DNA from: Schmidtea polychroa
Lineage: Eukaryota
Reading direction: 5' to 3'
NCBI GenBank assembly: GCA_044892525.1
Contig: CM097887.1
Location: forward strand, 49,166,001 to 49,230,000
DNA: 64,000 nt
Made by a program: the position numbers and the translations under genes. Below, one piece after another: positions 11,661-56,433 of the stretch. The notes below the pieces were generated by a model. The model worked only from the letters and a program-made list of their open reading frames with translations. It was not told the origin of the DNA and did no database searches. The stretch's first letter is position 1. Each line of letters begins with the position of its first letter.

Positions 11661-11668
11661 ATGTTCTG

Positions 11669-33038: not shown

Positions 33039-35339
33039 CTTGAATAGCTGTGAAGAGAAGGCACAAATAAAAATTAAACTAAGGCAAATTAGAGACGTCA
33101 TTATCTAGTCGCAATCCTACTGTTCTGATCATTTTATAATTGCCCATACAAAACGGGTTTCTTAGCCTGAAGAGATCTCTCTACCCTACAGATCTTGTAT
33201 ACTTTGGGTCCTTATTTGTACGAGAATAGGTCATTCATACAAAATCTTGCTAAGGGAAAATTATTAATTAACGAAATTATGATTTAGTTAGGTTACTTAG
33301 AATCAATACCTATCATTTGAGAAGAATTTAAATTAAAATTACCGATTTATTCTAAACTATTAATTTTACTGTGTCGATCTTACAGGTAAATAGGTCGATG
33401 TGGTTTAAATGACCTAATTATACGAATGAGGGTTTTGTCAGTTTACTTTAACTGGTATATTCATAATAAAAGGATTTTAATCAACTACAATTATTTAATT
33501 GGGGCAGACTAGAACTTTGTCATCTCATTGGCAATTATTGATTGATTATTTATGATAACAGGAATTTAATTAAGTTGTAACTATCTAGTTGTGACAAATA
33601 AGAATTCTGTCATTTTATTTACAATTATCGATTTATGTTAAATAAGAACTTTGTTAATTCATTTGTGATCAGTGATGTACGCACAACCAAAATTTTCCAA
33701 GATTAAGTGAACACACAAGTCTAACCAGGCGAGCTCAAACTGACTATTTGACTGCCGTCTATCGCACTTGATCGGTGGGGAGTCTAGTGATTATCAGTAG
33801 TTGAATTTGCGAAGTAACAATTTTAGCTGGCGCGTTATGTCTAATTCTCGGCGATCGGTGTAAATCTGCACATTGCGCTTAACCTCTGTGATGTTCCTAT
33901 AACGGGCGACGCATGAGAATTTGCTCTCTCAATCGTAATCACTGACTGGTGTGCTCAGTCTGGAGTTTACCTGCTGTGTCTAAGTATGTATGCAGATGTG
34001 TTCTCTCTATGGAATGTAATGCTAACTGACAAGCTGCGTACATACCCAAATTCTACTCCTCATGGCCTAGACCTGCTGTTTCGCATGAGGATTTTTTGGA
34101 AAAATGCGATTTGGTGCCTCGCTATCGTTGGATGAGATTTACTTCGATGACGGATTACGCAACCATTCGGATACCATTTATCAACTCAACTCATGATCCT
34201 TCACTACGGTCATCCATTCCTGTCGATTTTGGAAATTCATTGTTAGATTTTCAGCTCGACGATATGCAGGTATTAATATTCAATCTGTAAGCATTATCAG
34301 GATAAATGGTTTTTCGAAATACATTTTTCTTAATTAGATTTGTTTATAATTTTTCATTTAAAAATTGTCTATAACCACTCGTTTTATGTAATTCCACACA
34401 GACACTTTTGAGAGACCCTAAACTGATGCAAATAGTAGTTATGAAAGATCATAAGCGGAAAATTCGCAGGAATGAATTCTGAGTAGAATCCTGATCACCG
34501 ATGTCACCTATAGTACTACTAAGATCTGGACGGAGCTGACGAAAATTGTATAGATAACTTTGAGCTTGGCAAAACGACATTAAGACCCGATAGTGCGATA
34601 CTCTCAATCACTGCGTGAATGCTCAGAAATCTTCCTATTCATTTATCTACACATCTATTATTTTCGGTCACTGTCTGGCTATTCATTTCTAACATAATTT
34701 TTCTAAAAATTTCAGTCGCACCTTCAGCGACGGACCCGTGAGGAAGCCCCCACATTACGGCCCGAATCAGCTGCGTGATTGAAAAACCCCATGTCCACCG
34801 GCTGAGCTCCCGAAGGCACCTCACACCATGACAATGGAGTTTCTCAACGCCACGTTCCTCGAGAATTCGAATAGCATAAAATGATAATTCATAGAAATCA
34901 ACAAATCATAAGCATCGACTTTATCGTAAACCATTTATTGGTAAATAACTAAATCATTAAATTAAGTAAAATCAAACGAAAAGAAAACCAATTCTTTAAA
35001 TATTTTGAAAATATATGATTAGTTTATATGCATTACGTAAAAATTCCAAATACAAAATCAAAAGTTTCCTTACCGAGTGTTCAGGCTGAGTCGAAAAGTA
35101 CTGGGTTCAAATTAATTAATGCTCAAATATAGATTTAACTGGAGGTTCCTAAATACTAGAATAGTCCTCGTATGAATTCAACTGAAATCTTCTGGAATAT
35201 TAGAATAGTCCTTGAAGCTGCTAGGAGTCGGTTTTCTAACTGTGAGTGCTAGTTTCGCCTGTAAGAGTTGTTGAGTTAACGGTCTTGTCGAGTACCTGTA
35301 ATTGGTTTGGTTTTAACATTGCATTACTTAATACTATTT

Positions 35340-35427
35340 CTTACCTGTAATTGGTTTGGTTTTAACATTGACTATAGGGAATTTTCTGTTTACTTATATA
35401 GGTATTTTTTCGTTTATGCGGACCAAT
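35340..35427 (-). promoter_or_regulatory. Putative LTR promoter: CCAAT box, TATA box, Inr and splice donor
   Basis: CCAAT (35423-35427, plus strand), TATATAA (35400-35394), TCAAT initiator-like site 31 nt downstream (~35369), then CAG|GTAAG at 35344. Confidence 0.5.
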
Positions 35428-35575
35428 CAGAATTGAGTACCGCCTTATTTTATTAATTTAATTTATTTTTCTTGTTTTTGAGTTATTTTTTCCTATTTTC
35501 TTTATTTTTATTGTGTTTTTTATTTATTTTCTCTAATTTCTTTATTATCTACTACATTTTACGTTATTTTCTGTC

Positions 35576-35758
35576 ATTCTATTGTCCTATTTTAATTGTT
35601 CTTATTTTTATATTTTTTGTTTTAATTCTTATTTTCTAATTTATTATTTTCCTTATATCCTATTCTATTTTATTCTTAAATTTGTTTTTGTTTTATTTTT
35701 ATTTTAATTTAATTATATTTCACCTAATTTCTTGGATACCCTTCGATTCAGCCCAACA
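35576..35758 (-). repeat. Start of the 3' LTR (183-bp block shared with 56434-56616)
   Basis: Identical by eye to 56434-56616. The A-rich composition continues leftward, so the LTR is probably longer. Confidence 0.85.
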
Positions 35759-35998
35759 AATCACTCGGGGACCCATCAAAATTGCGTCCCGCAATTACAT
35801 ACTTACTTCATTCATTCATAAAAAGAAATAAAATAAACACGACATCATATACAATAAATTTATTAATAAGATAAAGGTCAAAATAGAACCAAGCAGGTAT
35901 CACTTATGGTGATAGGATATATACACAGAAGTTCACGCTAGATAATGTTTTACAGTTCACACTAGATAATGTTTTAAATCAGTACTGGCATTGTTTTA

Positions 35999-36625
35999 TT
36001 ACTCTGAGGACTTTGACTGGGGTTGTTGGTACGTTTTAGGCTCGATGTTGTAGTAGGCCGGACGACTGGTTGATGGTTTGGGAGATTCTTGGTTGGTTAA
36101 TCTGAGTGGACTTGTGTTTTGAGTAATGTTGGGGATTTCGACCGAATTTTGCTGGGTGGCTTTGGATTTCGGTTGTTGGCATTTTTTCTTGAATTCGAGG
36201 ATTTCCAGGAAGGTTATTAGACATAATAGGCTTGTTTCGGCGATCACCACATATAGAAGGTAGTGGGTGTCGCTTTGTCCTGAGGACTTCTCGATCTTTT
36301 CAGGTTCGGAATTTTCCTGTCGTATTTGCACTTCTAGTTGATCCAGGTGATGGATTTGTTCTATCATCACTTTATTTATTTTTCTACACAGGAGGTTTCC
36401 TTGGCACATTATTCGGATATTGTCGATGTAGGTTCGGGTTGAACGGATGTTGTCTATGATTTTGCTCTTCACCAAGGTATGGCATATCGGTTTAGGTGAT
36501 TCGGATTGGGTTTTCGAGTTCTTTCTTCGGTGATCTCGGAGGCTATCTATTTGGGGATTACTCTGTGGCTCGCTCATTAGATTGTTGGCCAATATTATCA
36601 AGGTGATTGTCACTCCCCACCGCAT
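35999..36625 (-). CDS. Accessory ORF-E: small type I membrane protein (~208 aa)
   Basis: Signal-like MRWGVTITLIILA, single hydrophobic segment YLLYVVIAETSLLCLITFLEIL, and a Ser/Thr/Pro/Gln-rich tail. Confidence 0.65.
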   Translation of the reverse strand: MRWGVTITLIILANNLMSEPQSNPQIDSLRDHRRKNSKTQSESPKPICHTLVKSKIIDNIRSTRTYIDNIRIMCQGNLLCRKINKVMIEQIHHLDQLEVQIRQENSEPEKIEKSSGQSDTHYLLYVVIAETSLLCLITFLEILEFKKKCQQPKSKATQQNSVEIPNITQNTSPLRLTNQESPKPSTSRPAYYNIEPKTYQQPQSKSSE

Positions 36626-36680
36626 TATACTGTTATACATCAAACATTTAATTTATTTACAATTGTCGACGGTTTTTTGT

Positions 36681-37361
36681 TTAATCGTCTTTCTTTTGGG
36701 GATTGTTTTCGGTGATTCTCATTAGGGTGGTCTCTGCCTTAATGACCCTATATCTCAACTCTGGTAGCATTGCTAACTGTCGGTCCTTTTCTCGGGCCTC
36801 TCTCTTTAAATGTCTAATTTCTTTTTCCAATCGTCTAATCTCTTCCCTTTTCTTTTCCAGGTTTCTTTTTAGCTCAATTTGTAGGAAGTAATTTTGTTGT
36901 TGATGTTTTCCTTCTATCTCTCTATATTTGCGGATCCACTTCTTCATTCCTTCACTTTCTTGTTGACTTTCTTGCAATTGTTTCTCCAGTTCCTCTATGG
37001 TTGCTTGCCGTTCTCGCGCCTCAGTCTTCCAATAATCGTTAATCACTTCGTTTGCCTTTCTACTGGCCCTTTCTTGCCATAATTCTTCCTCAATCTTCTC
37101 CCAATTTCTCCCTCGTTTTCGTTGTTCTTGCAGCCATTCGTTTTCCTCTTCTGTTTCTCTTTTTACTTCCCCTAGCACTCTACATTCTTTCTTTAGTATC
37201 TTTATTATTTTTCGATCTTCTATGTATTTGTTTACCAGTCTCTCGTTTTCACACTTCTCTGCTCGCAACTCTGCTTCTAGCGTTTGTGTTTCAGTTGTTT
37301 CTGTTACAATTTCTCCTTCTTCCACGTCACTCGTGATTTCTATCATTTCTTCGATTTTCAT
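36681..37361 (-). CDS. Accessory ORF-D: coiled-coil protein (~226 aa; frame open from 37415)
   Basis: Intact frame, E/K/R-rich heptads throughout. Confidence 0.65.
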   Translation of the reverse strand: MKIEEMIEITSDVEEGEIVTETTETQTLEAELRAEKCENERLVNKYIEDRKIIKILKKECRVLGEVKRETEEENEWLQEQRKRGRNWEKIEEELWQERASRKANEVINDYWKTEARERQATIEELEKQLQESQQESEGMKKWIRKYREIEGKHQQQNYFLQIELKRNLEKKREEIRRLEKEIRHLKREAREKDRQLAMLPELRYRVIKAETTLMRITENNPQKKDD

Positions 37362-37543
37362 ATCTATAATATGTACAGTTAATGGTGCGCTATAGTGCGA
37401 CTTATACATATACATTTATATAAAATTTAATAGTTTGGGTTACAATCCCTTGAATACTTTTACAATACTTTAATTTTTTTTTGTTTGGGATATACGTCCC
37501 GTTTTTTTTTTTTTTTTTTTTGTTTTTATCTTTTTGTTCGCCG

Positions 37544-38599
37544 TTATACGAAGGTCTCCTCCTGTCCCACATACCCTTCATCACTATCGACCGCTGGATG
37601 CAACTGTATCGCAATAGGGTCATAAGGTAGGTAGTATTGGGGAATTTGAGCTCTCAATTCATTAACTTCGTCTCTTAGGGCTCGAGTGATGTTCAGCTCT
37701 TCGTCGAGCAGGTAGGTGAGATACCTTGTCTCTTCGTCTTTCATCTCTATTTGTCTATCTAGAGCCTTGATTTTCTCGTCGCCCTTCCATTTTTCAATTT
37801 CTATTTCCAAGTTTTTGATATTTTCGGCATACATTTTCCTCTCGTTTTCTAATTTTTTGTTTTTTCCAGCTAGGACCATATTTCTTTGTTCTAGTGATCC
37901 CTGTAATCCATTGAGGTCTCGTTTCATCTCTGCGACCTGATTTACTAATTCCACAACCCGTCCTGCTTGTTGGGTTATCATCTCCTCCATTGCGGCATTC
38001 TCGTGCTCTCTTATGTCGCATTTTATTGCCAAATGTCGCTCGAACTCCATGGCCTTCATCTGCCATGTTTAGCTTCGGGCGGCGACCTTTCTCAACCGTT
38101 TCAGTTCTTCCTTTATTATTAAATTTTCCTCCCATTTACCCTGTTCGTTTTCATATCCGAGTCTCATGGGCAATTCTTTCATCTCTTTTTTCATTTCATT
38201 ATTTTGTCTTTTCCATTTTCTGGCCTCTGCTTATAAATGCATCAATTTCCTTCCTTCTATTTGCTTTTCCGCTTCGCGTTTTGCGTTTTCGTCAGTGAGC
38301 CTCTTTCTCGCTTCCTGCACTAGCTGCTTTAAGTAGTGGCTGTGCGCTTCTTGGCGGGTATTTTCTAATGATGCCCATTTTGATGCCCTTTTACAAGCTT
38401 CTGCTTCCTCTCTTAAATTGTGGATTAGCCATTGATATTTACTGTTCTCATCTTCTCTGGCTTCTTCGATGTAGTTTCGGGTGAGGTTAGTTAGTTGGAA
38501 CATTACTTTGTTCCATTTTTCGTTGTATTCTCGGGGAATTTGTGTTTTGTGGGTATTGGTTGGGGCTATCGTAGTTTCGGTTATTCTCTCTTGTGTCAT
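37544..38599 (-). pseudogene. Accessory ORF-C: ~351-aa coiled-coil protein with two in-frame TAA (38231-38233, 38069-38071)
   Basis: Track ORFs 38231..38599 and 37544..38059 are in the same frame. The segment between them reads AEARKWKRQNNEMKKEMKELPMRLGYENEQGKWEENLIIKEELKRLRKVAARS. Confidence 0.7.
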
Positions 38600-38797
38600 T
38601 TCTAAATCATTGATATAGATTAATCTTTTTATTATGGAGAAAAAAATTTTTTATTCATTAGTTACTGGTTCTTCGGAAATTTTCGCATCATTTTTGGGTT
38701 TTCGTATTTAGGGTTTTTCATACTATTATTATATAATATTTTATTGGTTATATACGCCGATATATACAGGTTATTATATACAACATTATTCGATGGA

Positions 38798-40186
38798 TTA
38801 CTCCGTTCTACCCTTCCCTTCCCTTCTCACTGTCATTTTTATATATATTGTGTCGTTTTTTGTCATCTCTTCCATCTTCTGCTGTAAGATGAACGTGGGT
38901 GCTCCTGATGCTGCTCCTTCCTCATCAGTAGGTCGTCGGTAACACAGCTGGGTTCCCGTTGTTTTGAAGCTTTGTTCGTGGATGCTTTGGTCATTCATCA
39001 TTGTGATATCGATTTTTGCCTGGAATGGCCATTCTATTACCTCGTCATATTCCCCTTTACATAATAGGAAAAATATTGAAAAATGTGTATTCAATCCGGC
39101 TCCATCTCCGTTGGGATATATCCTCATTTTCATCTTGTACCCATTTTTCCAAGAATGGAATGCAGGACTTGTTATTCTTGTCTCTTCCCCAGTTTTGGCT
39201 TTCCGTATTCTTTCTTTCACTCCCGTTATCTTCCATATATAAGGTGCTGTTGGGGTTATCTCATTTAGATTTATTTCCTGTATTTTCCGATGTAGCTCCT
39301 TGGCCTGATTATTACTGATTTCTATACGATTTATTTGCATCTTTATGTTAGCTCGGGCTTCTTCGAACGCTTCTCTTTCTTATAGTAGTTCTTTGACTAA
39401 CGCTTTCAACGATGTTATTTCTATCTCCATTTGTTTTACTTTCTCTTCACTTTCTTGTAACGCAGTCGACCACATTTCTGCGTGGGTTGAAGCATTTTCT
39501 ACTAAATGATGTGGTAATTCTCCTCGGTGTAGTAGTTTCTGACAGCCCCATTTTCCGAGTACACATGTCATTCTTTTCCTTTCGCATTCCTTTAGGTGTT
39601 GGGCTATTTTTATTGTTCTCCCTTCCTCGCATCAGTTCGGGCATTCCCCACTGAACTCCGCGCATACCTTTTCCTCTTGGACATTGTGATGTTTGCTGGT
39701 GAGATTTTTCCACGTATCTATTTCTCCACAATGTTTGCATCTTTCTAGTCTCTCTTCACACTGGCTTTGATGCTCTTTTTCTTCGCTTGCTCGAATGGTT
39801 TTATGGCACCTTTCACACTGGCTGATTCTGTACATACATTCCCCCATATGTTGCACTACTTTCCATATTACTCCCTTCCATTCGCATGGGGTATTTTTAC
39901 ATCCCAGATTGGTGTTTACCATGTCTTTCACTGCGGCTTTATCCTCGTTAGTGTCTTCTAAACTCGATATTAGTGTCTCTTTACACACCGGGCACCACTG
40001 TGGTCTATTCTTTATTGCTTCACTGATACATTCCTTACATAATCTGCATCCACATTGGGTTTGGTGAGGTTCCTTTAACAACTTTTCACATATTCCGCAC
40101 ATAACATGTTTGTGTATTCTGATCGTTGTAGATTTTCGGACTTGTTCGACAATCTCTCTGAACTCTTCTCTTTGTCGTTTATCCAT
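38798..40186 (-). pseudogene. Accessory ORF-B: intronless full-length TRAF (RING, TRAF zinc fingers, coiled coil, MATH), 462 codons, two in-frame stops
   Basis: RING CGICEKLLKEPHQTQCGCRLCKECI...CPVC; zinc fingers CKNTPCEWKG...HMGEC and CPN*C...HLKEC; MATH YIWKI...SPAFHS...GYKMKMRIYPNGDGAG...HFSIFF...GEYDEVIEWPF. The track ORFs starting at 40186, 39571 and 39340 share one frame, broken by TGA 39632-39634 and TAA 39380-39382. Confidence 0.92.
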
Positions 40187-40271
40187 TCTATAATTATATA
40201 TACATATAGTTCTTATCGATACAGGTTCGATATTTTATTTACAATTATTTACATTTTAAGCTAGGTTTGGT

Positions 40272-40631
40272 TTATGGTTCGGAAGAGTCGGCTTCGTGTC
40301 CGCCCTCCTCTCTATTCATTAGCCATTCTGACCAGTCTTCTATTTCTGTCTGTTCTGCTTCCTCCATCATTCTGTCCAATTCGATTTCCTGTCTTCGGCT
40401 ATATTGGGTTATCCTCTCTATTTCTCTTTGCATTTGTTCGATTTTTAACCTCTGGTCTTCAATTATCTTCAAATAACTAAATCCTCTGTTCATACTCTCG
40501 ATTAGGTTCTTTTGCATCGTCAATCCTTGTTCTTGCAAATTAGACACTAATTGTGCTAATACGGCACATTGTTGCTTCCATAATTCTTCGGTTACTGTGT
40601 TGTGGTTCATTTCGTTATTTCCTTGCTCCAT
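40272..40631 (-). CDS. Accessory ORF-A: small acidic coiled-coil protein (~119 aa)
   Basis: Intact frame with heptads LKIEQMQREIERI...IELDRMMEE. Confidence 0.55.
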   Translation of the reverse strand: MEQGNNEMNHNTVTEELWKQQCAVLAQLVSNLQEQGLTMQKNLIESMNRGFSYLKIIEDQRLKIEQMQREIERITQYSRRQEIELDRMMEEAEQTEIEDWSEWLMNREEGGHEADSSEP

Positions 40632-40791
40632 TCTTAATTTATATACACTTTTCAACTCTTATCTAAATTTAATTTTATTTTATGATTCCCGTTATTGTAT
40701 AATATTGATACCGCGCTTATATAACGATATAGTACTGTTATATACATAAGATATACTTACTTTTTACAATTATATACAGTCATATTCCTTT

Positions 40792-43700
40792 CTATATACG
40801 GGGTTTTGGAGGGCGCTGGGCGTTCCAGGCCTCCACCCACTGTTCTTGTTTGACATCACTTGGTCGTTTCACTCGATGTTGGAAATTTCTGATTCGGGTC
40901 ATCTCTAGTTCTCCGCGATGTCGTTTATCTTTAATTATTTTTATTGTTCCCCCCGTTATGATTAGGAATGCCCCTGTTATTATTATCCCACTGATCCACA
41001 TCATCTGCTTTACGCTTATACTCTCTGGTTTTTCCTTGTTTATTAATGTTGATATCGCTTCTGTACTTTTCTCGTTTCCTCTTTTGCCATTTCCTTTCAT
41101 CATCTCTCGTATTCTTGCTATTTCCTCGTTCATACCCTCCTTTGCCATCTTTTGTATTTTTTCCATCTCTTCCTCCGAAACATAGTTGTCCTGAGCTTCC
41201 TCGCCGGTTTTCTTGTGCTTTCCTCCTTCGTCTTTTTCGTCGTTGTTTTTTCTTTTCTTCCCTCTTTTCCCCGGGTATCGTCGACATTCCCTTTTTGATT
41301 CGTTCCTCCAGATACAAACTGTGTATTCCTTTGGGGGCTGCTGCTGCGTCACATATTGATGGCATCTCTCACCTGGTCCTAATCTTGAAATACAGACTTT
41401 GTGTTCTTTTCTTGGTTGAAGTGGCGTTATTACTACTTCACCTCCTTTTCCTAGGTGCACCTCTTTTCCCTTCACGTTCGTTATTCTTTTCCCGTCTCGA
41501 TTTCGGTATGCTTCTTGTATTCTTACCTCTGTTATTGGTTCTGTGTCCTCATTTATCAGTACTAATCTCTGATACGCTCTAGACATACATCTTCCTAGTA
41601 TGCACCTTTCCTTTAGGCCCCATTCTTCCTTTAAGTCCCACTGCTGTTCTTGTGCTTGCTTTTTCTTTTCTTGTTTTAGTTCTTCCTCTTTGCTATCTTG
41701 ATTCTCCGCTTCTTTGGTTTCTTTTATCGTTCTCGTCCCTCCATGAGCTGTTACTAACTCTATCAAGGTTAGCATGATTATCATTAAGATCATATTTGTT
41801 TCCATTTCTTTGTTAGTGAAAGGTAGGCATACCCTCTGTTTTCCATTATTCGGTTTTTCCTCCTCTTTGGTCTTGGTTCCCGGGCTGTTTCCCTCTCTTC
41901 TTGTACCCGAATCCTTGTTTTCCGGTTTATCCTCTTCCGGTTCTCTTTTCCCTTTATCCTCCTTTCGGCCTTTTCCGTCATTGTCATCGTGTTTATCTCC
42001 CCCGCTGTTGTTTAAAATGTCGTCCTCGACATTTATATCGTTCAGTAATCTGCGATATGCTGTTAACACTCTGTTCCTTGCTAACTTTGCTTCGAATTCA
42101 AACTCTTTTCTACCCGTTGCAGCATGTCTCTTTCTATTCCATTCTTTGACTAATTCTCTCAATTGAATACGACGATGTTTTCCAATTCGTTGTTGCTCGT
42201 TTTGATTTTGCGTGAATTTGAGGTCTTCTCTATTTAATACTATTAAGATAATTTTAGGCGTCCCCCCTTTAGTTAGGGTATTCTTTACCATCGCGTTTTC
42301 TCCGTTTTCGTAAAATTCGTTTATATTTATCGCATATTTATTATTTTGTGGTACTCTCCATGTCAATAATAATTTCATTGCTTCTAGATTTTTCCGTACC
42401 GTATTCCACTGAAATTGTGATGTGTTTTTGCATATATTTTCAACTTCCTCTTTTGTCGCATTTTTGCAAATAAATCTGATCATTTCCAAGTTTGGCTGTA
42501 TGGTTGCCCAGTCCAATGTGGAGTTCCCTTCGTTTGATTTTTCGTCTAGTCTCGATCCTGATTGATGTAGGATGTGGAGTGTTTTTGGGTGTATTTTCGT
42601 TATAGCTGCATACATCATGGCGGTTTCGCCTTGTTCATTTTTCGTGTTGGTTTCCTCGCCCATATCTCTAAGGATTCTCATGATCGTTATTGCTCTATTT
42701 TCTTTCGCTGCTAGTATTGCTTGTTGTAGTGGTGTTCTGGAATCCTTCGTTACCATCGTAAATGCTCGGGGCAAGAAGGTTTTAATTTTACCGATGTCCA
42801 AATTCGTTGTTTGATCTCTTGCATATGTATGCACGGTTTTTATTATTTCTGATAATATTATTTCATCTGGTAGCTCTAGCATTTCCTCAAAGAACACTTC
42901 TTTCGCTTTGCATATTATTGCTCTTTGATCTATATTCATTGATTTTGTTTCGATGAAGTTATTTGCGATTTTATGGTTCGTTTGCGCCATTGGTTCTCTT
43001 GATGTCTCATGCCTTATTTTCATTTTCTTTCCGGTTGGATTATTGATTCGTTCCTCTGCGGTAAGTATTTGAATAATATCTAGATAATTCTCGCGGATGT
43101 TGTTCATCGTGTCCATCATGTATAATACACTTACCGTTTCCCAATGTTTATTTCGTACCTGAGTGATGAATTGGAATATTGATTTTTCGAATGTGTCAAT
43201 TCGCTTTTTTAATAACTGCTCATCCTTATGATTTGTGAATGTTATTCCTCGTTCTAGTAATTGATTCGGGATTTCGAATAAATGATGTCCTCTCATAGCT
43301 TCTCTCATCAGTGTGTTTTCTCCTCTCGTGAATGCTTCGTTTACGTTGATCATATAATTATTTTTAATTGGGTTTCTCCAAGTGATTAATACTCCGGTAA
43401 TTGTTGTCAGTTTCTCTTTGATCGCTGTTAATAATCCCTCATACATGTTTCCGACTTCTCGATTGTCCTCGTATGATAGTAGCTCCATCAACGACGTAAA
43501 CGCTTCGGTACTTTTCCCTTCGATAGCATGATGTAGTGCGTTTTTCCGATCGTGGTCTTGTGTAGTTATTTTTGATCCTGTATCAAGTAATGCGGTTATT
43601 ATGTCTTTTGTTTTGCCTCTGTTTGCTGCTATCATTAATGGTGTGTAACCTTGGTTATTTTCTTGTTCTGTTGATCGCTTGCAGTCGTGAAATGCTTCTA

Positions 43701-44960
43701 TTGTTTCTAGTATTTGCTCATTGTTACCTACTTTCATGAGTTTGTGTAATGGTGTGTCTCCATAATGATCTGTTATTGTAAATAATATTGGCCATTGACT
43801 TTTAACTACTCGTAATAACGGATGTGTTCTCTCTCTGTTTGCATAGTTTTCGATCATCGTCAATAATCCTCCTAATATTTCGAAATCTAATCGATCTTTT
43901 GCCCATCCGGGTAATTTTATCTTTACCTCTCGTACGATTTTTTCAGCTTCCGATGGTTGTATGCCCAATCGTCCAGTGGTAGGTTCTGCGAGTTGTTGCA
44001 TCATGTTCATTCTGTAGGTTTGCGAACGTGTGGTTAATGTACGGCCTTCTGGTTGACTGGTGGCTGTTTTTGGAATTGATTTGCATCGTGCCACGTTTAC
44101 GTATATTGGCCTGGTGAATGGATTATTTACCAATTTCACTCTTACATTGGTTTCGCCTACGAACAAGATCTCATATGGCCCTTTTCCGTTCCATTGTAAC
44201 TTTCTTGTGGTTCCGGGAATTAATTCTGGGGTCTCGATCATCACCCAATCGCCTGTTCGAAACGTATGTTGCTTCACGTTTTTCTTTCGATCGTGTAAAT
44301 CTTTATAACTTTCCTGGTAGAACTTGATATTTAATCCCGCAGTTTCCCAAATCTCCTGCATTCTTTCTTTGAATTTCGTAACATAATCATCTATCTCCAT
44401 GTATTGCGATATCGGTGGTTGGTATTCCAGGTCCATTGGCATGTTGCATTCTCTTCCGTACATTAATTTAAATGGGCTCATTTTTGTTGATGCGTGAATC
44501 GACATTCCGTAAGCCATAAGACATAGATTTATGTATTCATCCCAATCTCGTTGGTGGCGATCGACGTAGTTTGATAACATTTGTATGAGTGTTCCATTAA
44601 ATCTTTCCGTCATCCCATTGGTTTGAGGGTGATATGGGGATGTTCTTAGTTTTGCGATTTTGAAATAGTTTGTTACTTCGCTCATTATCTCACTCATGAA
44701 ATTAGTTCCTTGATCAGTTAGTATTTGTTTCGGTGTTCCATAACGGCAACATATCTCTTCTACCAGTATCTTTGCAATTGTTTTGGCTTTTTGGTCTGGC
44801 ATCGCGAATGCTTCTGGGAATTTCGTGAGAAAGTCGGTAATCACTAAAATATAAACATTTCCTTTATCCGATTCTGGTAATGGACCAACTACATCCATTG
44901 ATATCATCGTCATCGGCTCTATTGGTACTGGCATTGGCGTTTCGATCCAGTGTTTTTCCT
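40792..44960 (-). CDS. Polyprotein C-terminal part: integrase core + GPY, two ankyrin clusters, internal signal peptide, small ectodomain, transmembrane anchor
   Basis: ISMDVVGPLP / ILTDQG / GMTERFNG (D-D35-E) and GKGPY. ANK motifs GDTPLH, GYTPLMIAA, RKNALHHA, SRTPLQ and GETAMMYAA. Hydrophobic MILMIIMLTLIELVTA (~41750-41800) and MWISGIIITGAFLIITGG (~40950-41005). Confidence 0.9.
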
Positions 44961-47900
44961 TGTTGCACAGGTTAGGCAGTTTTTCACCCATTCGGTTACG
45001 TCTTCCGTTAGGGTTGGCCAAAAATATTTCTGTTTCATTCTTGCTAACGTCTTTTTTGATGACATATGTCCTCCCAATCTCCCATCGTGATATTGCGTTA
45101 GTAACTCTTTTCGTCGGTTTTCCGGTATACACATTAATCGTTTTTCCCCATCCATTATCAGCAACCAATCTTTCTCCATAATATATCGGTGTCGGTGTTT
45201 ATCCATATGTTCTTTTAATTTTTGATCTTTCGCATATACCTCCGTCTTTCCGGTTTTTACATAATCGATAATTTGTTTTAATTCCGCGTCCTCTTGTTGG
45301 TCCTTTCGCAATTGACAGAAATCTAAATCTTCCGCTACTATTAAGCATATGCGTTGCATTTCTGGATCTACCAAATCTGGAAAAATAAACCTTGACATAC
45401 AGTCGGCGTTTGCATTCGCTCTTCCCGCTTTGAATTTTATGAACGGTGAATACTCTTGTAGCTGCATTGCCCATCTCATTAGTCTACTGGACGCTTCTTT
45501 ATGTTGCCCTAACCACACTAATGGTTGATGATCTGTGGTTATACATATCTCATGTCCCCATAGTAAATATCGGAAGTGTTTGATAGCTTGTATTATAGCC
45601 AATGCTTCTCGTTCTGTTACCGAATAGTTCTTCTCGTGCTTTTTGAATATTCGACTGTAATACCCGATTACTCTCTCTTTTCCTTCATCGTCTAATTGTC
45701 CCAGAATCGCGCCTGCCGCGTACCCGCTTGCATCCGTCGCCAATAGAAATGGCTTCTTGAAATCTGGGTGTACGAGGATAGGTGCTTCGATTAGCTTGTC
45801 TCTCAGCGTTTCAAACGCCTCTTGTTGTTCCTTTCCCCAAATGAACGAAATATCCTTCTTTACTAATTCCTGGATTGGTTTTGCAATTCCTGCATAATTT
45901 TTGATAAATTTGCGATAGTATCCGCATAATCCTAGAAATTCCTGAACTTGGGTGACAGTTTTCGGTGCTGGACATGTTTTTATTTTCTCAATGTTTCTTG
46001 GATCTGGCTCCTTTCCTTTAGCTGACACTATGTGTCCCAAAAACGTGACTTTTTCCTTTGCCCAATCACATTTTGAGGGTTTGAGCTTGAGTTTCCATTG
46101 TCTTAATCGAATAAATACATTTCGGATATCCTCCAGATGTTGTTCGAATGTCGCTGAATAGATTAACAAATCGTCAATATATACCATACATTGTTTGATT
46201 CCATGAGTGACGAAGTTCATACACCTTTGAAATGATGCTGGTGCGTTGGTCAGTCCGAATGGCATTTTTCTGAACTGATATAGATCTCGTCCCAACGTGA
46301 AAGCCGTTTTCTCTTTGTCCTCATCTTTGACTTTGATTTGCCAGTATCCACTTTTTAAATCTAAAGAAGTAAAATATGCTGCCCCTTGCAACATGAGTAA
46401 CATTTCATTGATGTCTGGCAATGGATAGGTATCTCTCTTGGTTACTGCGTTTAATTTTCGATAATCGATACAGAATCGTTGGGTGCCATCTTTCTTTTTT
46501 ACCATGACCACTGGGAATTGCCAAGGTGAGCAACTTGGTTCGATCACTTTTGCGTCTAACATTTTTTGTACTTCTGCTTCGGCTATTTCTTTTTGCATTT
46601 CTGCTAGCTTGTATGGTCTCAATGCAATTCGGGTTTCGTCTATGAGTGGTATTGCATGTAGGGTAACATCGCATGTACCCAAATCTAGGTCCGAGATGGC
46701 GAATATATCTTTATATTCTACTAATAATCGGTGCAATTTTTTCTTTTCATCATTCGTCAACAACATACTATCTATGGTCCATAATTCATCATCTTTGATC
46801 ATCTCGTTGGTCACTTTCGGTAATTCTATGTCCATCATTGGGGTCAATCTTCCCAATTTTTCATTCTCATAGATGATTTTGTCTTCCTCTTCAAAATTTG
46901 TGATGTTGATCGGTATCACTCCTTCTGGGTTTATTGTTATTATTTCTCTGGCGAGGGGTAACTCTCGTCGTTTTTCGAATGATTTGCTTGGTTCAAAGAT
47001 AACTTCTCCTTCCATCCCCGTATCCACCTTTATCTGACAAATCATCTGTGATTTTGCTGGTACCACAATTTTCTCTGGACATCTGATTATGGCATTCATT
47101 TTGCATATTCTGCCTGTTCTGTCTTTTAGGCACATGGTTGTTAAGTCAATTACCACTTCTTTTAATAATTCTGGCATCAAATCCGTTCCGATTATGCATG
47201 GTACGCTAAGTTTTGGTATTACTGCCAAATACGTTTCAATTTCGTTGTCCTGGTATCTCAATGTAGTCCACCATCTTCCGACCACATCTACTGTTTCTTT
47301 ACTACATGCTATGATATGAATGGTTGTTGATTCGATATCCTTCCAGTACTTACTGGGAATCTGATTGATTGCTATCGCTGATACGTTAGCTCCGGTGTCT
47401 ATCATAGCATTGGTTTCCTTACCATTGATTTGAATCATAACTGTGACTGCTGGACCTCCAGGTGAATTCATTGCTGCTATTGTTCTTACGTCATCTGCTT
47501 GATCTACACTTTTGGTACGTCGCGTTGGCATATAAAGCATCCCGGGTTGACTTGGTAATTGCGGATACATATTCTGTGTCATGGTCAAAGCGGCTTGTGG
47601 TCCCACGATATCCGGTGGTATATAGCTTCCGTTGGCGATCCAGGTGTTTGTCTTTTCCTTTTCCCAATACGGTGCTGTTTCCATCGGTTTTTCGTTTGGG
47701 TTTCTGTTTGGATATAGACATTTATCGTTCCCGTTATCGTCGTCGTCACTATCGCTGTTTGATGATTGACTTCTGAATCGGTCCAAAAATTTTGGTTTAT
47801 TCTTTTTCAATTGTCGTCTTGTTGCTTCGTCGTACATTACCTTCCGGAATCGTCTGCCTACTTCTTCGTCGGTTCCTTTAATCTTTGTTAATATTTTAAT

Positions 47901-50024
47901 TAATCGTTTTATTCGATGAATGTCTTTTGAGTGACCATGTAATACCATGGTTTTAGCTAAAAATGGTAGAAAGCCTACTATCATTTTCCAGTTAACTTTC
48001 TTTTCCCGCTTGTATATATCAAAACAAGCTAACATTTGTGTTAGTATTACTCTGACGATCTGAATTATGAGTATGATCCCCAATATTCCGGCCATCATTT
48101 GTCCGAAAACTAAGAATCTTCCCCACATTGCTTTCATCATATTTGAGGTTGCTTGTTGGAAATGGTCTGGCGATAATAGCAGTTCGTAATTCGGGCCTGA
48201 TTGATAATTTGTTCCCCCAGTTATTGTAACCATATTTGACAAAATGGATTCTCGTCTGGCTGGGAAGAGTACGTTAAGTCGTGATGTTTCTAGATCTTCT
48301 GGGGAATACATACCACCGTTTGACACGTCTATAGGTTTGAAATCCAGCTCTGTGGCGAGTTCTATTAATCCAAATTTCTTGGGCTCCTCGGATATGGTTT
48401 TTCCCGGTAACATCATCCATTTCCCATCGGGTCTTTCATACAATGGTCCGTACGCATTAGAACAGTTAAAGAGATTTGGATAGAAACCCACTGGATTCAT
48501 AATTCTAGTGACTGGTTGGACGAATCGATTTTGTCCTTTATAACGGATTTCTAATTCATTTGCACATCTCTTTTCGGGTAGTATGGATTTTTCGGGCATT
48601 CGTGCATACGTCTTGGTACACTGGTAGGTGTACATCACTTCTCCTACCATTCTACCAAAATGTCCGTCTGGTAATGGGAGTGATGGCATCGTGTTATCTG
48701 GGTGCGTTATCGCAATAGCTAGCTTTGTTTTCAGTATTTCTTTATTCAATGAACAATCGTTTTGTATGAGATCGTAATATACTTTCTGTAGGGTCGTTTG
48801 TCCACGATGAAATAAAAAATCCATTTTATTATTTGCATATAAGTATAGTTTTACGTCCTCCGTTGCTATCTTTCCCACTGCTCTATCGATTATTTGTCTT
48901 GACATATAGATACCAGCGTAATTGGTTTTATATACTATACTGTCGCATTTGGTGGTTTCTTTCTCTTTGATAAATCTCATACCTAGATCTGGATCGTCGG
49001 TAATTAATGCTGTTGGTGTTTTCTGCGTCGAGAGTCTTTTTTCTCTGGGAGATGGTGGCATTGGTTTTCCATTTCGCATTCTCACTCTTTCGTTTCCATC
49101 TTCGTCGTTTTCGTTCTCATAAATTTCTCCCTTTACTTCATTGAACAAAGCACTTTTTAACAGTTGGAGTCGGCATTTTTGCGTGTTAGCTTCATAGATT
49201 ATAGTTGATACTCCTGTCCTGCATACGTTTTCTGTAGCTCTACATGCTGGGTTGGTCTTCATTTGATAATTATTTGCGTCAAATTGTGCTTCGTATTCTT
49301 TTAATTCGACCGTATAAGACTCGATCACTACTACTCCCGATATTACCTCGCCTCGGATCGTATACGTACCTCCGTTACATGACCCATCTGATGACTTTAC
49401 TTTTCCGGATACGTAAACACTTTCGGTTTTAATCATTCCAGTTTGTCCGTGTATCGTCACTCCGTTATGCATTTTTAGAGCTCCGGTTCTAAATAGCTCT
49501 TTACAGTCTTCTCTTTGTATTTGTACGATTTCTTTATCTAGACCGGGTAGTATGAGGGTTGAATACGAATATTGTCCGCAATAATACGCGAGTACCTTTT
49601 TTGATACAACGCATTCTCTTGCTTGCGTTCTGATGAAATCTGATTCTTGATATACATGGTAGGTAACTTTTGTTTTTACTATGTCCAATCTGTTGGGTGA
49701 TGCTTGCCTGCATTCTTCTATATCTCTCAATGAGTATTTATCTCTCATTATCATATTATCACAATCGTAGATGGTAAAACCCGTTGCTCCACTTGTGCAC
49801 AACATCCATATCATCATAGTCATCATTAACGAATTTATCGATGCTTTTCGGCTTGCTGGGTCTTTCATGGGTAGTTCCCATTCTAGTTCATTTAACAGCT
49901 TTTTCAATCTAACTTGCATCGACCTTTCTTGCTCATTTTTTCGTGGCGCTTGTATAAGTCTTTTCCATCCTCCGGCACTGATAATATGGGGTTCAATAGT
50001 GTCTTCTATGATTGACACGGTCAT
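44919..50024 (-). CDS. Polyprotein: envelope glycoprotein (48020-49840) fused in frame to protease, RT, RNase H and the integrase zinc finger
   Basis: A single 1701-aa open frame. Signal-like LMMTMMIWMLCTSGATG, Cys-rich ectodomain and TM FLVFGQMMAGILGIILIIQIV, then MIDTGA (47399-47391), YIDD (46181-46170), ATDASG and H-x6-H...C-x2-C. A -1 shift near 44955 leads into the integrase core. Confidence 0.93.
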   Translation of the reverse strand: MTVSIIEDTIEPHIISAGGWKRLIQAPRKNEQERSMQVRLKKLLNELEWELPMKDPASRKASINSLMMTMMIWMLCTSGATGFTIYDCDNMIMRDKYSLRDIEECRQASPNRLDIVKTKVTYHVYQESDFIRTQARECVVSKKVLAYYCGQYSYSTLILPGLDKEIVQIQREDCKELFRTGALKMHNGVTIHGQTGMIKTESVYVSGKVKSSDGSCNGGTYTIRGEVISGVVVIESYTVELKEYEAQFDANNYQMKTNPACRATENVCRTGVSTIIYEANTQKCRLQLLKSALFNEVKGEIYENENDEDGNERVRMRNGKPMPPSPREKRLSTQKTPTALITDDPDLGMRFIKEKETTKCDSIVYKTNYAGIYMSRQIIDRAVGKIATEDVKLYLYANNKMDFLFHRGQTTLQKVYYDLIQNDCSLNKEILKTKLAIAITHPDNTMPSLPLPDGHFGRMVGEVMYTYQCTKTYARMPEKSILPEKRCANELEIRYKGQNRFVQPVTRIMNPVGFYPNLFNCSNAYGPLYERPDGKWMMLPGKTISEEPKKFGLIELATELDFKPIDVSNGGMYSPEDLETSRLNVLFPARRESILSNMVTITGGTNYQSGPNYELLLSPDHFQQATSNMMKAMWGRFLVFGQMMAGILGIILIIQIVRVILTQMLACFDIYKREKKVNWKMIVGFLPFLAKTMVLHGHSKDIHRIKRLIKILTKIKGTDEEVGRRFRKVMYDEATRRQLKKNKPKFLDRFRSQSSNSDSDDDDNGNDKCLYPNRNPNEKPMETAPYWEKEKTNTWIANGSYIPPDIVGPQAALTMTQNMYPQLPSQPGMLYMPTRRTKSVDQADDVRTIAAMNSPGGPAVTVMIQINGKETNAMIDTGANVSAIAINQIPSKYWKDIESTTIHIIACSKETVDVVGRWWTTLRYQDNEIETYLAVIPKLSVPCIIGTDLMPELLKEVVIDLTTMCLKDRTGRICKMNAIIRCPEKIVVPAKSQMICQIKVDTGMEGEVIFEPSKSFEKRRELPLAREIITINPEGVIPINITNFEEEDKIIYENEKLGRLTPMMDIELPKVTNEMIKDDELWTIDSMLLTNDEKKKLHRLLVEYKDIFAISDLDLGTCDVTLHAIPLIDETRIALRPYKLAEMQKEIAEAEVQKMLDAKVIEPSCSPWQFPVVMVKKKDGTQRFCIDYRKLNAVTKRDTYPLPDINEMLLMLQGAAYFTSLDLKSGYWQIKVKDEDKEKTAFTLGRDLYQFRKMPFGLTNAPASFQRCMNFVTHGIKQCMVYIDDLLIYSATFEQHLEDIRNVFIRLRQWKLKLKPSKCDWAKEKVTFLGHIVSAKGKEPDPRNIEKIKTCPAPKTVTQVQEFLGLCGYYRKFIKNYAGIAKPIQELVKKDISFIWGKEQQEAFETLRDKLIEAPILVHPDFKKPFLLATDASGYAAGAILGQLDDEGKERVIGYYSRIFKKHEKNYSVTEREALAIIQAIKHFRYLLWGHEICITTDHQPLVWLGQHKEASSRLMRWAMQLQEYSPFIKFKAGRANANADCMSRFIFPDLVDPEMQRICLIVAEDLDFCQLRKDQQEDAELKQIIDYVKTGKTEVYAKDQKLKEHMDKHRHRYIMEKDWLLIMDGEKRLMCIPENRRKELLTQYHDGRLGGHMSSKKTLARMKQKYFWPTLTEDVTEWVKNCLTCATRKNTGSKRQCQYQ

Positions 50025-50042
50025 TTCTACGTGATTTGCGAA

Positions 50043-53000
50043 CTATTTATTGGGTATTTTCCTTGCAGCTAATCCCATCAAATTATACATCAAATAAGTC
50101 ATTACCACTAGATGATGTTCGTCGTCATTTGCATTTGTCGTGAGCTGTTCAATCACTCTCTTGGTTTCATCCCAATCCGTTTTGGTAGTTTTCGTTTTTT
50201 CTTTGATTAGCTTTGGGATTATCCCCGATACGATGTGCCATAATTGTCTAGCTTCTACACTGGCTACTTTCCGTTGCCACAAGCGTCTAAGTTGTGGGTT
50301 TGTTATTATCAACATATCTTTTATCAATTCTCGTATCCATTTTTCTCCTCTTTCAATCGTTGGTTGGGCTTCCTTTAGTTCTCATACTATTTTGTCTAAC
50401 TTTTCCAATCGAACTTGCCCTTGTCCTTGTTTTACTTGTTCCTTGGTTTTGAACTCAGATTTCTCTCCTTGTTTCTTAGGTCTTCCTTTTGCCCGTTTTT
50501 CCATCATCGTTCCAGCTTCTCTGGTATTTTCGTAGTTCGGATTTCTTTCGTTATCCGTTCTGGGTAATGAGCTATCGTTATTTCTCAGCCACTCATTCCA
50601 TTCATCTATTATTTTATCAGTTTGACCTTCCGATGTTATTTTTGTTGGTTCTCTTTGCTTCTGGAATTGTTCATCCGTTTCGGTTTCCGTAGTATTGTCG
50701 ACGATTTCCTTGATGTTCAGTTTCGTTGGTTGTTGATAACTTGTTGATGGTTGGTTGTTGGTCCATATTTCGGCTCCGGTTGGCCATCTCACTAATAGCG
50801 GTGATCTTTCTCCTGGTTCCTCGTCACTATCTTCGAGGATAATCTCTTCGACTTCTTCAGTTTCATTAGATTTACTTGGTGCTTTGTTCGGACTCGGAGT
50901 ACTCAAACTACCTTTTGTTGGTTTATTGATTTTGCTTTTCCTTTTCAACGGTTTTCCCAACATTTCCGCCATTGTTAACACATTAGTCTCTTCTAGTCTC
51001 ATGGGTGTTATTCCGACGTCTGCATTATCGTCTAGTGATTTTCCTTGCAGTTGTAGATGGAATGGAGTTTCGTATGCTAATTTCTTTTTTAATTCCCTGA
51101 TTTTGGTGGTTGGGTGTACTTCTACTTCTTCAACATTCTTATCTGGGTATTTAATTCGGATTCGATATCTTTCTTGGGTATCTTGTGACCACTCGTGGTT
51201 TCGCCACTTCCCGATAATTTGTTCCAGTTGTTCAGGGTACCATTCGTTGTATTGCCGGTATTCTTCTATAGTTTTTACTATCTCTCTCAGACAATGGATA
51301 TTATCCGATATTTTTAAAATGAAGTTAGCCAATGCTATTACCTGTCGTTTTTGATTTTTCGCTCCCTTTATCAGGATGTCGCCTAATTGTTTATATCTTT
51401 CTCTCTCTTCTCGTTCTCTTGCTTCCGTCGCTTCCTCGCCGTCTATATCGGCATATTCTCGTTCCTTTTTCCGCATTGCATGAATATGTCTCGCCTCATT
51501 TTCGCTTTCTGACGTGACGTCCGTCTCGCTTTCGTCATCTGATGTCTGTCCCCTTGCTTCCTCTTCATATTCTGGAGGTTCCTCTTCTTCTTTCTCCGAT
51601 TCACTTTCTGTCTCACCAATGTCTGTTTCTACGAAGATTCCTTTCCGGATTTCCCATTCCTTATTTTCTATATTCCACACTCTTTCCCATGGGGTTCGTC
51701 TGCAGGATCTGGTACTTAGTTTCGTGATTTTTCCTTGTAGTTCCTTTTCTTTTAACCATTGTTGGTGAATTTCAATTATTTCTGTAGATTTTTGATATAA
51801 CGTTTTCATCCGGTCTCGTATTTCTTTTTGATATGTTACGTCTCTTGTTCGAAATTCATCCATTGGTACTATCCTGATTATTTGGTGATCGTCCCACATA
51901 CCCATTTCACTCAACGAGGTGTCGTCCTCCGCTCGTAATATTATTTTATCGTACATCATGACTACATCATTTACCATACCATCACTACTTTCGCTACGTA
52001 CCTTTTCCGTTATCTCTTGGTTTATCTTTGATACCAAATCATCCACTGTACTCTGATTGCTCATTTTTATTCGTCGTTTCTCTTCGTTCGGTAACCATAT
52101 GGTTATTTCCAACCTCTGCGGCTGGGTTTCTTTTAACCTTCCATATTTGTGAATCAAATTTATGGTTCTCCAATCACTCATTCGGAGCAATTCTGTATCT
52201 CGTAACCGGCTCATTAGTTCGTACATGGCTGGGGCTCGTCTGGTGATGAGTAAATCCCAGTTGTCTTCCACTTGTTCTTGAATTTGTTTGATCAGCTTGT
52301 CCAGGTTTCGTCTCAGAGTACATTTTTTTATTTGTTCTAATTTCAATTTGATATTAAAATCATATTCCGCCTTGGCATCTTTAGCCCAATCGTACAGGTT
52401 AGCTGGTTGTTTTTCTTTGTGCAACTTCAGTATTTGCGTTTCTCCTGGCCATATTAGTGCATCCACTAAGTGCATATCTTGTTTGACTTGCTCTCCTTGA
52501 TATTGGTATAGGTACTCCTTTTTCCTCGAGCTACCTAAGTGTTCCCGTATCCAATCGAAAAGTTCGTCGGTGACTGTGTTTTTAATCCATATTCTCTCAA
52601 GTCCTTTACTCGTTCCGATTTTTATTACATATCGAGTGGTATCGACCTGCTTCATTTTTTCCATATATTTTTTTATAATTGATTTTTCCTCGTTTGGTAT
52701 TAAATCTTTCTCGTTTCTTTCCAATTTCATCACTTTTTGCACGAATCGTCTGAATGGTATTATATCGATGAACTCTTGGTTCCTCACTACTACTGGGAGT
52801 ATTTCAGCTACTTGTCTTATCGCTTCCTCCCTCGCTTTTCTCAACTTTATTTCGATATCCTCGTCTTCACTTTCGCTGGTTATCTCGCTTTCGTCTTCTT
52901 CCTCTTCGATTTCCCCTTTTGGAGGTTCGCTTATTTCATTTAGCTGTAGTATTTCTCCACCCAAACTGCTCACATAGTCTTCGTCTGAGGACGACGTACC

Positions 53001-53888
53001 TTTTGTCCTTTTCATCATGTTGATTCGCAAATTTCTCATCCTAGGTACTCTCTTTAGTTTTCTATTTTCGAATATCGTTGTTTCTTCTGATTCCGATTCT
53101 TGTAGCATTTGGGGGTTTAACTGACTGATTTGCTCCTTGTTTTGGTTGTTTCCCTCTTTTATTCTTATTTCCGTTTCTTCATGTTTCTTTTCTATTTTAT
53201 CTTTTATCTTTTTCCAGAATATTTTCTGAATTCTCTGGTTCCCTTTCAAGATCGTGGTTGAATTCTCTGTTTTCATTTTCGTTGTCGTTTCTTTTAACTT
53301 TTCTGGTTCAGTCATGGGTACTACCCCTGGGTTTTTCCCGTAATTGTAGCAGTACTGGCTTTTCATGTCTTTTACTAATTTCATCATATTTATTCGCAAT
53401 GGTTGTTCTTGTCGTTGTTGGTTGCGTTCTTGTTTTATCCTCTCTTCCTCGGCCTGTAGTCTTTGCCATTCTTGTACATGTTGATGTACTTCATAACTGT
53501 TGAGATTTTCGGTACTCCTCATCATACGTATATTCTGGGTTTGTTGTGGTGCTGGTTCTTGTCTTGGTCTCATCATTTGTTGCATCATCTGTTTCATTTG
53601 GGAAATTTCCTGCATAACGTTCATTTGTTTTCCTTCACTAGGGTTACTTTGTCGTTGCGGATTCGACATGTAATTAGTATTTCGTTGTGGTGGTCGTTGT
53701 GGTTGACCCCTTTCTCGGCAATCTCTGGAGATGTGACCTGGCTGACAACAGTTAAAACAACCTCTCAACTGGCATCTATTTTCCGTATGTCCGCGCCGTC
53801 CGCAACGATTACAATTTGCGTTTCTATAACAATCTCTGTCCCAGTGTCCTGGTCTACCACATGTTCGGCACTGCTTGTTATCGTTCAT
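50043..53888 (-). CDS. Gag C-terminal part: three CCHC knuckles, Q-rich and acidic linkers, three ubiquitin-like domains; in-frame TGA at 50382-50384
   Basis: CRTCGRPGHWDRDC, CNRCGRRGHTENRC and CFNCCQPGHISRDC. The track ORFs starting at 53888, 50327 and 50024 are all in the same frame. Confidence 0.85.
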
Positions 53889-55982: not shown

Positions 55983-56278
55983 TTACGACTGGCTGGCACT
56001 ATTCAACAGCTCAATCTTCTTCCTTCTGATCGGTTGGACTATTCGACAACTCGATCTTACGACTGGCTGGCACTATTCAACAGCTCAATCTTCCTCCTTC
56101 TGATCGGTTGGACTATTCAACAACTCGATCTTACGACTGGCTGGCACTATTCAACAGCTCAATCTTCCTCCTTCTGATCGGTTGGACTATTCAACAACTC
56201 GATCTTACGACTGGCTGGCACTATTCAACAGCTCAATCTTCCTCCTTCTGATCGGTTGGACTATTCAACAACTCGATC
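55983..56278. repeat. Four near-identical 74-bp tandem repeats in the 5' leader of the giant element
   Basis: Units start at 55983, 56057, 56131 and 56205. Each is a dimer of ~37-bp half units (ggcactattcaacagctcaatctt / ggactattcaacaactcgatctt). Confidence 0.95.
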
Positions 56279-56433
56279 TTAATATTCCCCACTCTGCATG
56301 CTGCTACTTCTCTTTTCCTCTTTTACCCCGAATTATCATTTTCTCTGTCTCTACTTTTAATTTGTCGACTTGATCTTTACCGCTTGAGAGTGTTTCCCCT
56401 TTCCCCCCTTGCTCAAAACGCACGACGATCGCG

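Follow-up and report, generated by a model that had tools for sequence, protein, structure and literature searches.

The stretch analysed here, called the window below, comprises 64,000 nucleotides (nt) of contig CM097887.1 of Schmidtea polychroa. On its minus strand, from position 56617 to about 35014, lies a decayed Burro-like retroelement of the Ty3/gypsy group with long terminal repeats (LTRs), 21.6 kb in length. The Pfam search on the element showed Gag capsid, zinc knuckles, a gB-type viral fusion protein (PF24664), protease, reverse transcriptase (RT), RNase H, integrase, ankyrin, RING and MATH domains, and the order protease, RT, RNase H and integrase, together with the Gag capsid and the zinc knuckle, assigns it to Ty3/gypsy. 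This copy carries two frame changes in the polyprotein, near 53890 and inside the integrase, and because of its decay the apparent number of open reading frames (ORFs) is inflated; the true 3' accessory ORFs are five, named A, B (TRAF-like), C, D and E in their order behind the polyprotein. Each of the five has an AG shortly ahead of an ATG, and judging from the sequence patterns described below these AG sites are very probably used as 3' splice sites.

The first-pass annotation had listed six AG-ATG contexts on the minus strand (50024, 40631, 40186, 38599, 37361 and 36625) and had read each as a splice acceptor just upstream of an ORF start. All six are present in the sequence as written, and the reading is supported for the five accessory ORFs; the site at 50024 is treated below with the polyprotein. 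The AG lies 1-4 nt ahead of the ATG at all five accessory ORFs, but ORFs D and E require a later ATG, as their first ATGs (37415 and 36640) have no AG within 4 nt. As for the level expected by chance, 156 of the 510 minus-strand ATGs of the element (31%) have [ACT]AG 0-4 nt upstream, and 76 of the 510 have YAG. For the six listed sites the shuffle probabilities multiply to 2.5e-4, a value uncorrected for the freedom in choosing the ATG and the distance range. The short introns of host genes in the window end, by eye, in AT-rich TAG or CAG, as had been stated before for TAG, and the word TTATAG ends two of the element's sites and two host acceptor-like sites. Taken on its own, the window gives an acceptor signal that would be only suggestive and not compelling; the pattern gains its significance from two relatives that show it too.

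Relatives were searched for with a profile of 12 env sequences, and two loci, L001 and L002, were retrieved from metagenome_contigs (2 of 87 candidate stretches), while searches of viral_contigs and genome_contigs and a DNA motif search of metagenome_contigs gave no result. Their Env-Pol is 38-43% (L001) and 33-42% (L002) identical to that of the window, and their polyprotein frames of 3426 and 3703 codons, respectively, are followed on the same strand by accessory ORFs. L001 has two of them, for an exonuclease (PF00929) and a coiled-coil-like protein; L002 has three, namely a coiled-coil-like one, an exonuclease and one of 87 amino acids (aa). All five carry a YAG upstream of their first in-frame ATG, at a distance of 0, 0, 0, 2 or 3 nt, and 6-10 of the 14 nt upstream are T. 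The per-site shuffle probabilities are 0.12-0.15 and their product is about 4e-5, or 3e-4 when the 87-aa ORF is omitted. Two further L002 ORFs of at least 50 aa were left out of this count: the first lies within the exonuclease gene and has no AG, and the other is located about 600 nt past the last accessory ORF and has a GAG abutting its ATG. No similarity was found between the accessory proteins of the window and those of L001 and L002, so gene homology does not account for the pattern. Moreover, all ten accessory ORFs keep an ATG of their own. Among the in-frame methionines (Met) of the three polyproteins, YAG precedes 41 of 347 internal ones (12%) versus 9 of the 10 accessory starts (90%), and an A-rich Kozak context, which had been offered as part of the explanation, is thus insufficient alone.

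The exonuclease gene of the two relatives (L001 10617-12107, L002 12169-13473) is of the DEDDh type and 37% identical between them, and its order relative to the coiled-coil ORF differs.

The spacers behind the ORFs are 55-334 nt long and carry a new signal that the first-pass annotation had not seen. The motif TGTA[ACT]ATA, or UGUAHAUA in the RNA, occurs 11 times in the six window spacers (919 nt) versus 0.6 times in dinucleotide shuffles, and on the sense strand of the element it is confined to the spacers; the seven spacers of the relatives contain it five times versus 0.37 expected. In 7 of the 13 spacers it starts 14-20 nt past the stop codon, a range picked after looking. UGUAHAUA is described as a motif bound by PUF proteins (PMC5580656; here and below, statements from published work refer to the parts of each source that were covered). 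Its fusion to AATAAA, TGTAAATAAA, was found five times versus 0.04 expected, whereas AWTAAA is not enriched over shuffles (19 versus 14, p 0.10), though it occurs in 12 of the 13 spacers. S. mediterranea lacks a UGUA element upstream of its poly(A) signal (PMC5068929), which, provided that the host is a planarian, favours the PUF reading over a general role in polyadenylation. The spacers also contain GTAAGTA (5 in 13, 0.3 expected), which stands 32 nt past the polyprotein stop in the window and 29 nt past it in L001, and is absent from this place in L002. In the plant element EVD, premature polyadenylation of the full-length transcript is suppressed by a U1 site (PMC5580714). Each accessory gene thus resembles a putative cassette of acceptor, ATG, ORF, stop and 3' motif. 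The positions of the features are given in the table.

Features of the Burro-like element and of its accessory genes (positions in the window)
Feature	Position	Strand	Remarks
5' LTR remnant	56434..56617	-	first 184 nt; promoter, donors and primer-binding site missing; 100% identical to 35576-35759
Leader-region 74-nt tandem repeat	55909..56352	-	repeat family D3
Strong acceptor-like site	55278..55291	-	T run and CATTTTAG; not in the first-pass annotation
Gag capsid part	53885..54619	-	PF03732, E 8e-12; frame open from 54940; frame change ~53890
Long polyprotein frame	44919..53894	-	zinc knuckles, ubiquitin-like, Bcl-2-like, gB-type Env, protease, RT, RNase H, integrase zinc finger; single stops at 50384 and 50045
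TAG-AA-ATG of the first-pass annotation	50022..50029	-	Met inside the polyprotein frame; unlikely to be a start
Integrase core and ankyrin repeats	40792..45198	-	PF00665, PF12796; continues the polyprotein after the frame change inside the integrase
Spacer 1	40632..40791	-	three UGUAHAUA; GTAAGTA at 40760; acceptor-like AAG 40635-40633 (weakest of five)
Accessory ORF A	40272..40631	-	119 aa; no Pfam match
Spacer 2	40187..40271	-	three UGUAHAUA; AATAAA; acceptor-like TAG 40190-40188
Accessory ORF B, TRAF-like	38798..40186	-	RING, zinc fingers, MATH; 462 codons; two in-frame stops in this copy
Spacer 3	38600..38797	-	two UGUAHAUA; three AATAAA; acceptor-like TAG 38604-38602
Accessory ORF C	37544..38599	-	coiled-coil-like by composition; 351 codons; two in-frame stops in this copy
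Spacer 4	37362..37543	-	A run; one UGUAHAUA; acceptor-like TAG 37366-37364
Accessory ORF D	36681..37361	-	226 aa from the post-acceptor ATG; frame open from 37415
Spacer 5	36626..36680	-	TGTAAATAAA; acceptor-like CAG 36632-36630, sole AG in the spacer
Accessory ORF E	35999..36625	-	208 aa; signal-peptide-like N-terminus and one hydrophobic segment (by eye)
3' untranslated stretch	35760..35998	-	one UGUAHAUA; AATAAA; GTAAGTA at 35806
3' LTR	35014..35759	-	inner end approximate; TATA-like 35401-35393; initiator (Inr)-like ~35374; donor-like 35344 and 35073; 49-nt tandem duplication 35347/35298

The first 184 nt of the LTR are duplicated at 100% identity (56617-56434 and 35759-35576), and the 5' copy stops there, so the TATA-like, Inr-like and donor-like sites are present in the 3' LTR only; no target-site duplication was recognised at the element ends. 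Contigs from 4 of 12 listed sequencing runs, aligned to positions 35000-54999, showed many copies of the element that are 5-10% diverged from the window copy. In one of these runs, X2, the depth of the LTR is about twice that of the element interior. One of the stops of the TRAF-like ORF is read otherwise by most contigs of all four runs. No homologues of similar length were found for ORFs D and E, for which the protein atlas gave unnamed or low-recognition matches only, and Rfam gave no match in the window or in the L001 and L002 loci.

In the mechanism that we propose, the full-length RNA would be translated into one Gag-Env-Pol-ankyrin polyprotein, from which signal peptidase would free Env at an internal signal sequence and the protease of the element would free Pol. 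Splicing 1-4 nt before the ATG would place each accessory ORF first on an mRNA of its own, with a short 5' LTR leader exon as the splice partner. PUF proteins would bind UGUAHAUA just past each stop and set the stability or translation of the message, and U1-type sites near the first and the last spacer would shield the full-length RNA from early polyadenylation. We hold this reading as a whole tentatively, namely that the accessory mRNAs are spliced, most likely to the 5' LTR leader exon, and that Gag, Env and Pol are made as one polyprotein.

As to the splice partner, the donor CAG/GTAAG named in the first-pass annotation is present at 35344, 28-30 nt behind a TATA/Inr-like site, but only in the 3' LTR, which lies downstream of every ORF in the window copy; a second donor-like site is located in the LTR at 35073. 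The short leader would contain an ATG eight codons ahead of the 35344 donor. Spliced messages are the usual means by which LTR elements express a third ORF (PMC5408684). This precedent, the strong donor about 29 nt past the presumed start and the retention of an own ATG by the ORFs favour an LTR leader, and the LTR donor behind the TATA box, used in cis, is quite possibly the partner, though we would not put it more firmly. Termination-reinitiation was set aside because of the 55-334 nt spacers.

Several points weigh against the proposed mechanism. The 5' LTR of the window copy has no donors, an acceptor-like CAG 49 nt downstream could absorb the 35344 donor, and the cis introns would span 14-19 kb. 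Donor motifs inside the polyprotein are not clearly depleted, though depletion would be expected under either splicing model, and L002 has no GTRAG in the 2 kb past its last ORF, the expected place of an LTR that was itself not located. No acceptor junction was seen among 15 of the 45 joints listed and 24 of 1355 loose ends, which come from contigs, none of them recorded as RNA, and are evidence neither way. Of the window sites, one reads AAG and two depend on a later ATG. L001 and L002 were obtained from a single data set and have the exonuclease gene in common, so that their five sites are not fully independent, and in 9 of the 16 relatives examined the Env-bearing ORF starts downstream of Gag and shows none within it, for which breaks and contig ends may account.

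One contig of run X1 terminates precisely at 38602, where an acceptor has its final base; this would fit a leader ending in G but not in AG. The end was not taken as evidence of splicing, as a difference between copies at 38603 explains it equally well and X1 may be DNA. A joint in run X2 leaves out roughly one unit of the tandem duplication in the LTR and may likewise be a DNA variant. The 49-nt tandem duplication of CAG/GT (minus strand, 35344-35296) creates a GT..AG interval of the size of a host intron, the removal of which would delete one copy; it is possible that this is an intron born by duplication. Upstream of gag, a 38-nt intron on the minus strand could run from GTAAGC at 55315 to the strong acceptor at 55278, and an open frame without an ATG (55277-54957) starts directly behind this acceptor and in phase with it; a start for this frame may be supplied by splicing or may have been lost in the window copy.

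The best of the alternatives, less likely than the LTR leader, is an operon-like 3' end, in which cleavage and polyadenylation of the long precursor would follow each ORF and the acceptors would receive a host spliced leader (SL) by trans-splicing. The AG-ATG distance of 0-4 nt at 10 of 10 sites is in line with it, as are the AWTAAA words and the TGTAAATAAA fusions of the spacers, although the former are not enriched. The host proteasome gene Rpt3 has a similar start context, with a T-rich TAG 4 nt before the ATG. In nematodes, a donor upstream of an acceptor favours its use in cis, and under this rule the GTAAGT donors upstream of the first acceptor in two of the three elements would speak against trans-splicing. 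The spacer lengths are near the median of 99 bp in Schistosoma mansoni operons (PMC12582326) and the peak at about 100 bp in those of M. lignano (PMC8629364). Flatworm SL operons resemble the present layout in their same-strand genes about 100 nt apart with an acceptor at each 5' end, but here the genes lie inside a mobile element that also needs one full-length RNA, and trans-splicing is putative (PMC12582326, PMC8629364). Flatworm spliced leaders end in ATG (PMC12582326), and this terminal ATG would be out of frame at all five window sites, though in frame at four of the five in the relatives. The C. elegans element Cer1 offers a precedent: it is a Ty3/gypsy element with a long single ORF, carried by the unspliced RNA, and a subgenomic mRNA that is spliced and to which SL1 can be added, but its one spliced product overlaps the main ORF, unlike the row of separate accessory genes seen here (PMC3315495). 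As flatworm acceptors often serve both cis and trans splicing (PMC12582326), the two may both occur. A fuller version, that the 3' end of Burro-like giant retroelements is a trans-spliced operon of swappable acceptor-ORF-Pumilio cassettes, resolved by the host spliced leader and tuned by a stem-cell PUF protein, is slightly less likely again.

It is improbable that the accessory mRNAs arise from an internal promoter near the polyprotein end or in the spacers, with a leader taken from the donor of the first spacer or with very short unspliced 5' ends. The frequency of GTAAGTA and its similar place past the polyprotein stop in the window and L001 would suit such a promoter, as would the 14 TATA-like words in the window spacers (7.4 expected), and foamy viruses possess one (PMC7828637). 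However, the first spacer of L002 has no GTRAG, the TATA-like word at 40776 is just 16 nt upstream of the donor, and most TATA-like words overlap UGUAUAUA, the non-TATA variants of which are equally frequent. The U1 sites may instead suppress early polyadenylation, as in EVD (PMC5580714).

A still poorer explanation is that the AGs reflect the A-rich surroundings of the starts and the AT-rich spacers, or remain from gene capture, and that no splicing of the ORFs occurs at them. The 31% of element ATGs with such an AG agree with it, two of the starts were selected after the fact and the 50024 case proved to be chance; nevertheless, the five sites of the relatives, which had not been used in framing the pattern, all show it (p ~4e-5), the T-rich tracts stand on an A-rich strand, and the difference in YAG frequency between internal Mets and accessory starts is large.

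The site at 50024 probably does not open an ORF, contrary to the first-pass annotation. It lies seven codons behind the stop at 50045, in the same frame as all that is upstream, and is an internal Met with only 4 T in the upstream 14 nt. A weak Pfam match to Bcl-2 (E 0.079) covers both the stop, read as X, and the Met, and five relatives (P0003, P0007 and P0018, which rank among the best, together with L001 and L002) align across this position with other residues in place of the Met. The Bcl-2-like stretch is clearer in P0007 (E 0.00096), and the ubiquitin-like domain, weak in the window, reaches E 0.018 in L002. Gag features and Env are located in one ORF in 7 of the 16 relatives, and in L002 the capsid, knuckles, Env and Pol share the single 3703-codon frame; in the published Burro, env likewise stands between gag and pol and shares their frame (PMC6431247). 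It is therefore likely that one polyprotein contains Gag, Env and Pol, and the foamy-type spliced mRNA for Env-Pol that had been proposed is unlikely because 50024 is internal to a conserved frame and Gag-Env-Pol forms a single ORF in L002 and in Burro. That Env-Pol is made from such an mRNA starting at 50024 is highly improbable: the TAG-AA-ATG exists and nine relatives have no detectable Gag in the Env-bearing ORF, but 50024 shares its frame with the Gag-side ORF, with lone stops between them, and the Bcl-2 match, the five alignments, the few T upstream and the Burro gene order (PMC6431247) all count against it.

In four relatives (P0153, P0001, P0006 and P0003) at least two protease-like domains were found in the polyprotein, and Pfam lists seven such stretches in P0153. 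The end of the window polyprotein (minus strand, 41830-40930) has, by eye, a second signal-like segment and a hydrophobic segment, which suggests a second membrane protein released C-terminally.

The element type is known. Burro and GYPSM1, giant gypsy elements of planarians with a Burro polyprotein of about 4600-4800 codons, resemble the window element in Gag, CCHC knuckles, ubiquitin-like and Bcl-2-like domains, an in-frame mononegavirus-like env, ankyrin, a TRAF/MATH gene, accessory ORFs, tandem repeats and many copies (PMC6431247). Of the Burro-type domains, Pfam matches in the window are strong for ankyrin and MATH and weak for Bcl-2 and ubiquitin-like, and no match was obtained for BIR and dUTPase-like domains. 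The window element differs from Burro in its length (21.6 kb with a truncated 5' end versus more than 30 kb) and in that its TRAF is a downstream accessory ORF; the review section on Burro is silent on the expression of accessory ORFs (PMC6431247). The GAG-ENV-POL group of 'ancient errantiviruses', reported from flatworms, nematodes and bryozoans, shares the gag-env-pol order and the PF24664-family HSV/gB-type env, but the window element has five extra 3' ORFs; splicing is unmentioned in the main text of that paper (PMC13524379). As in complex retroviruses and foamy viruses, the accessory genes lie 3' of the core genes and are probably on subgenomic spliced mRNAs, but the window element differs in its Ty3/gypsy Pol, the gB-type env upstream of pol, the Pol that is likely not on a separate spliced mRNA, and the spacers between ORFs that resemble untranslated regions (UTRs) (PMC7828637). 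An acceptor before each accessory ORF, the arrangement of complex retroviruses, was found in the window (5 of 5, one being AAG) and in the relatives (5 of 5), whereas a Pol ORF with its own start separate from Gag, the foamy-type arrangement, was not found, 50024 being internal to the conserved frame.

Other features of the window and its copies were also recorded. Contigs in three runs diverge from the window behind the polyprotein stop (40728 / 39277), with high depth in X1, and other copies may have a different first accessory gene. A long A run (minus strand, 37543-37500) abuts the stop of ORF C and resembles the tail of a captured mRNA. Just before the LTR (minus strand, 35795-35765), a small inverted repeat with the motif CCCCGAGTG is present, which is repeated in a relic at 7.1 kb (7173-7140) and is possibly a cis element for plus-strand priming; a clear purine tract was not seen there. 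Downstream of the element (minus strand, 32295-33101) lies a 268-aa ORF without an assigned family, the second ATG of which is preceded, at 9 nt, by a strong acceptor rich in pyrimidines. A second gypsy element at 8388-12950 is env-less and has 236-nt repeats and a frame change in pol. In the host gene Rpt3, the TAG (2686-2691) is a candidate trans-splice or 5' UTR acceptor, and the first intron apparently begins with GC.

The cassette layout appears to be undescribed: the literature searched, which extends to sources other than the original Burro paper and its supplements, yielded no account of splicing or of PUF motifs for the accessory genes of Burro-like elements. How such an element expresses several extra genes alongside one full-length RNA is not addressed in the parts of the Burro and errantivirus literature covered. 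The acceptor-ORF-UGUAHAUA layout recurs in three distant elements with different cargo and predicts exact, testable junctions. It suggests a general route by which such elements may acquire and regulate host-type genes, possibly via host trans-splicing and stem-cell RNA-binding proteins. If the trans-spliced operon is true, unrelated host-manipulating genes (TRAF, exonuclease, membrane proteins) would be collected without new promoters.

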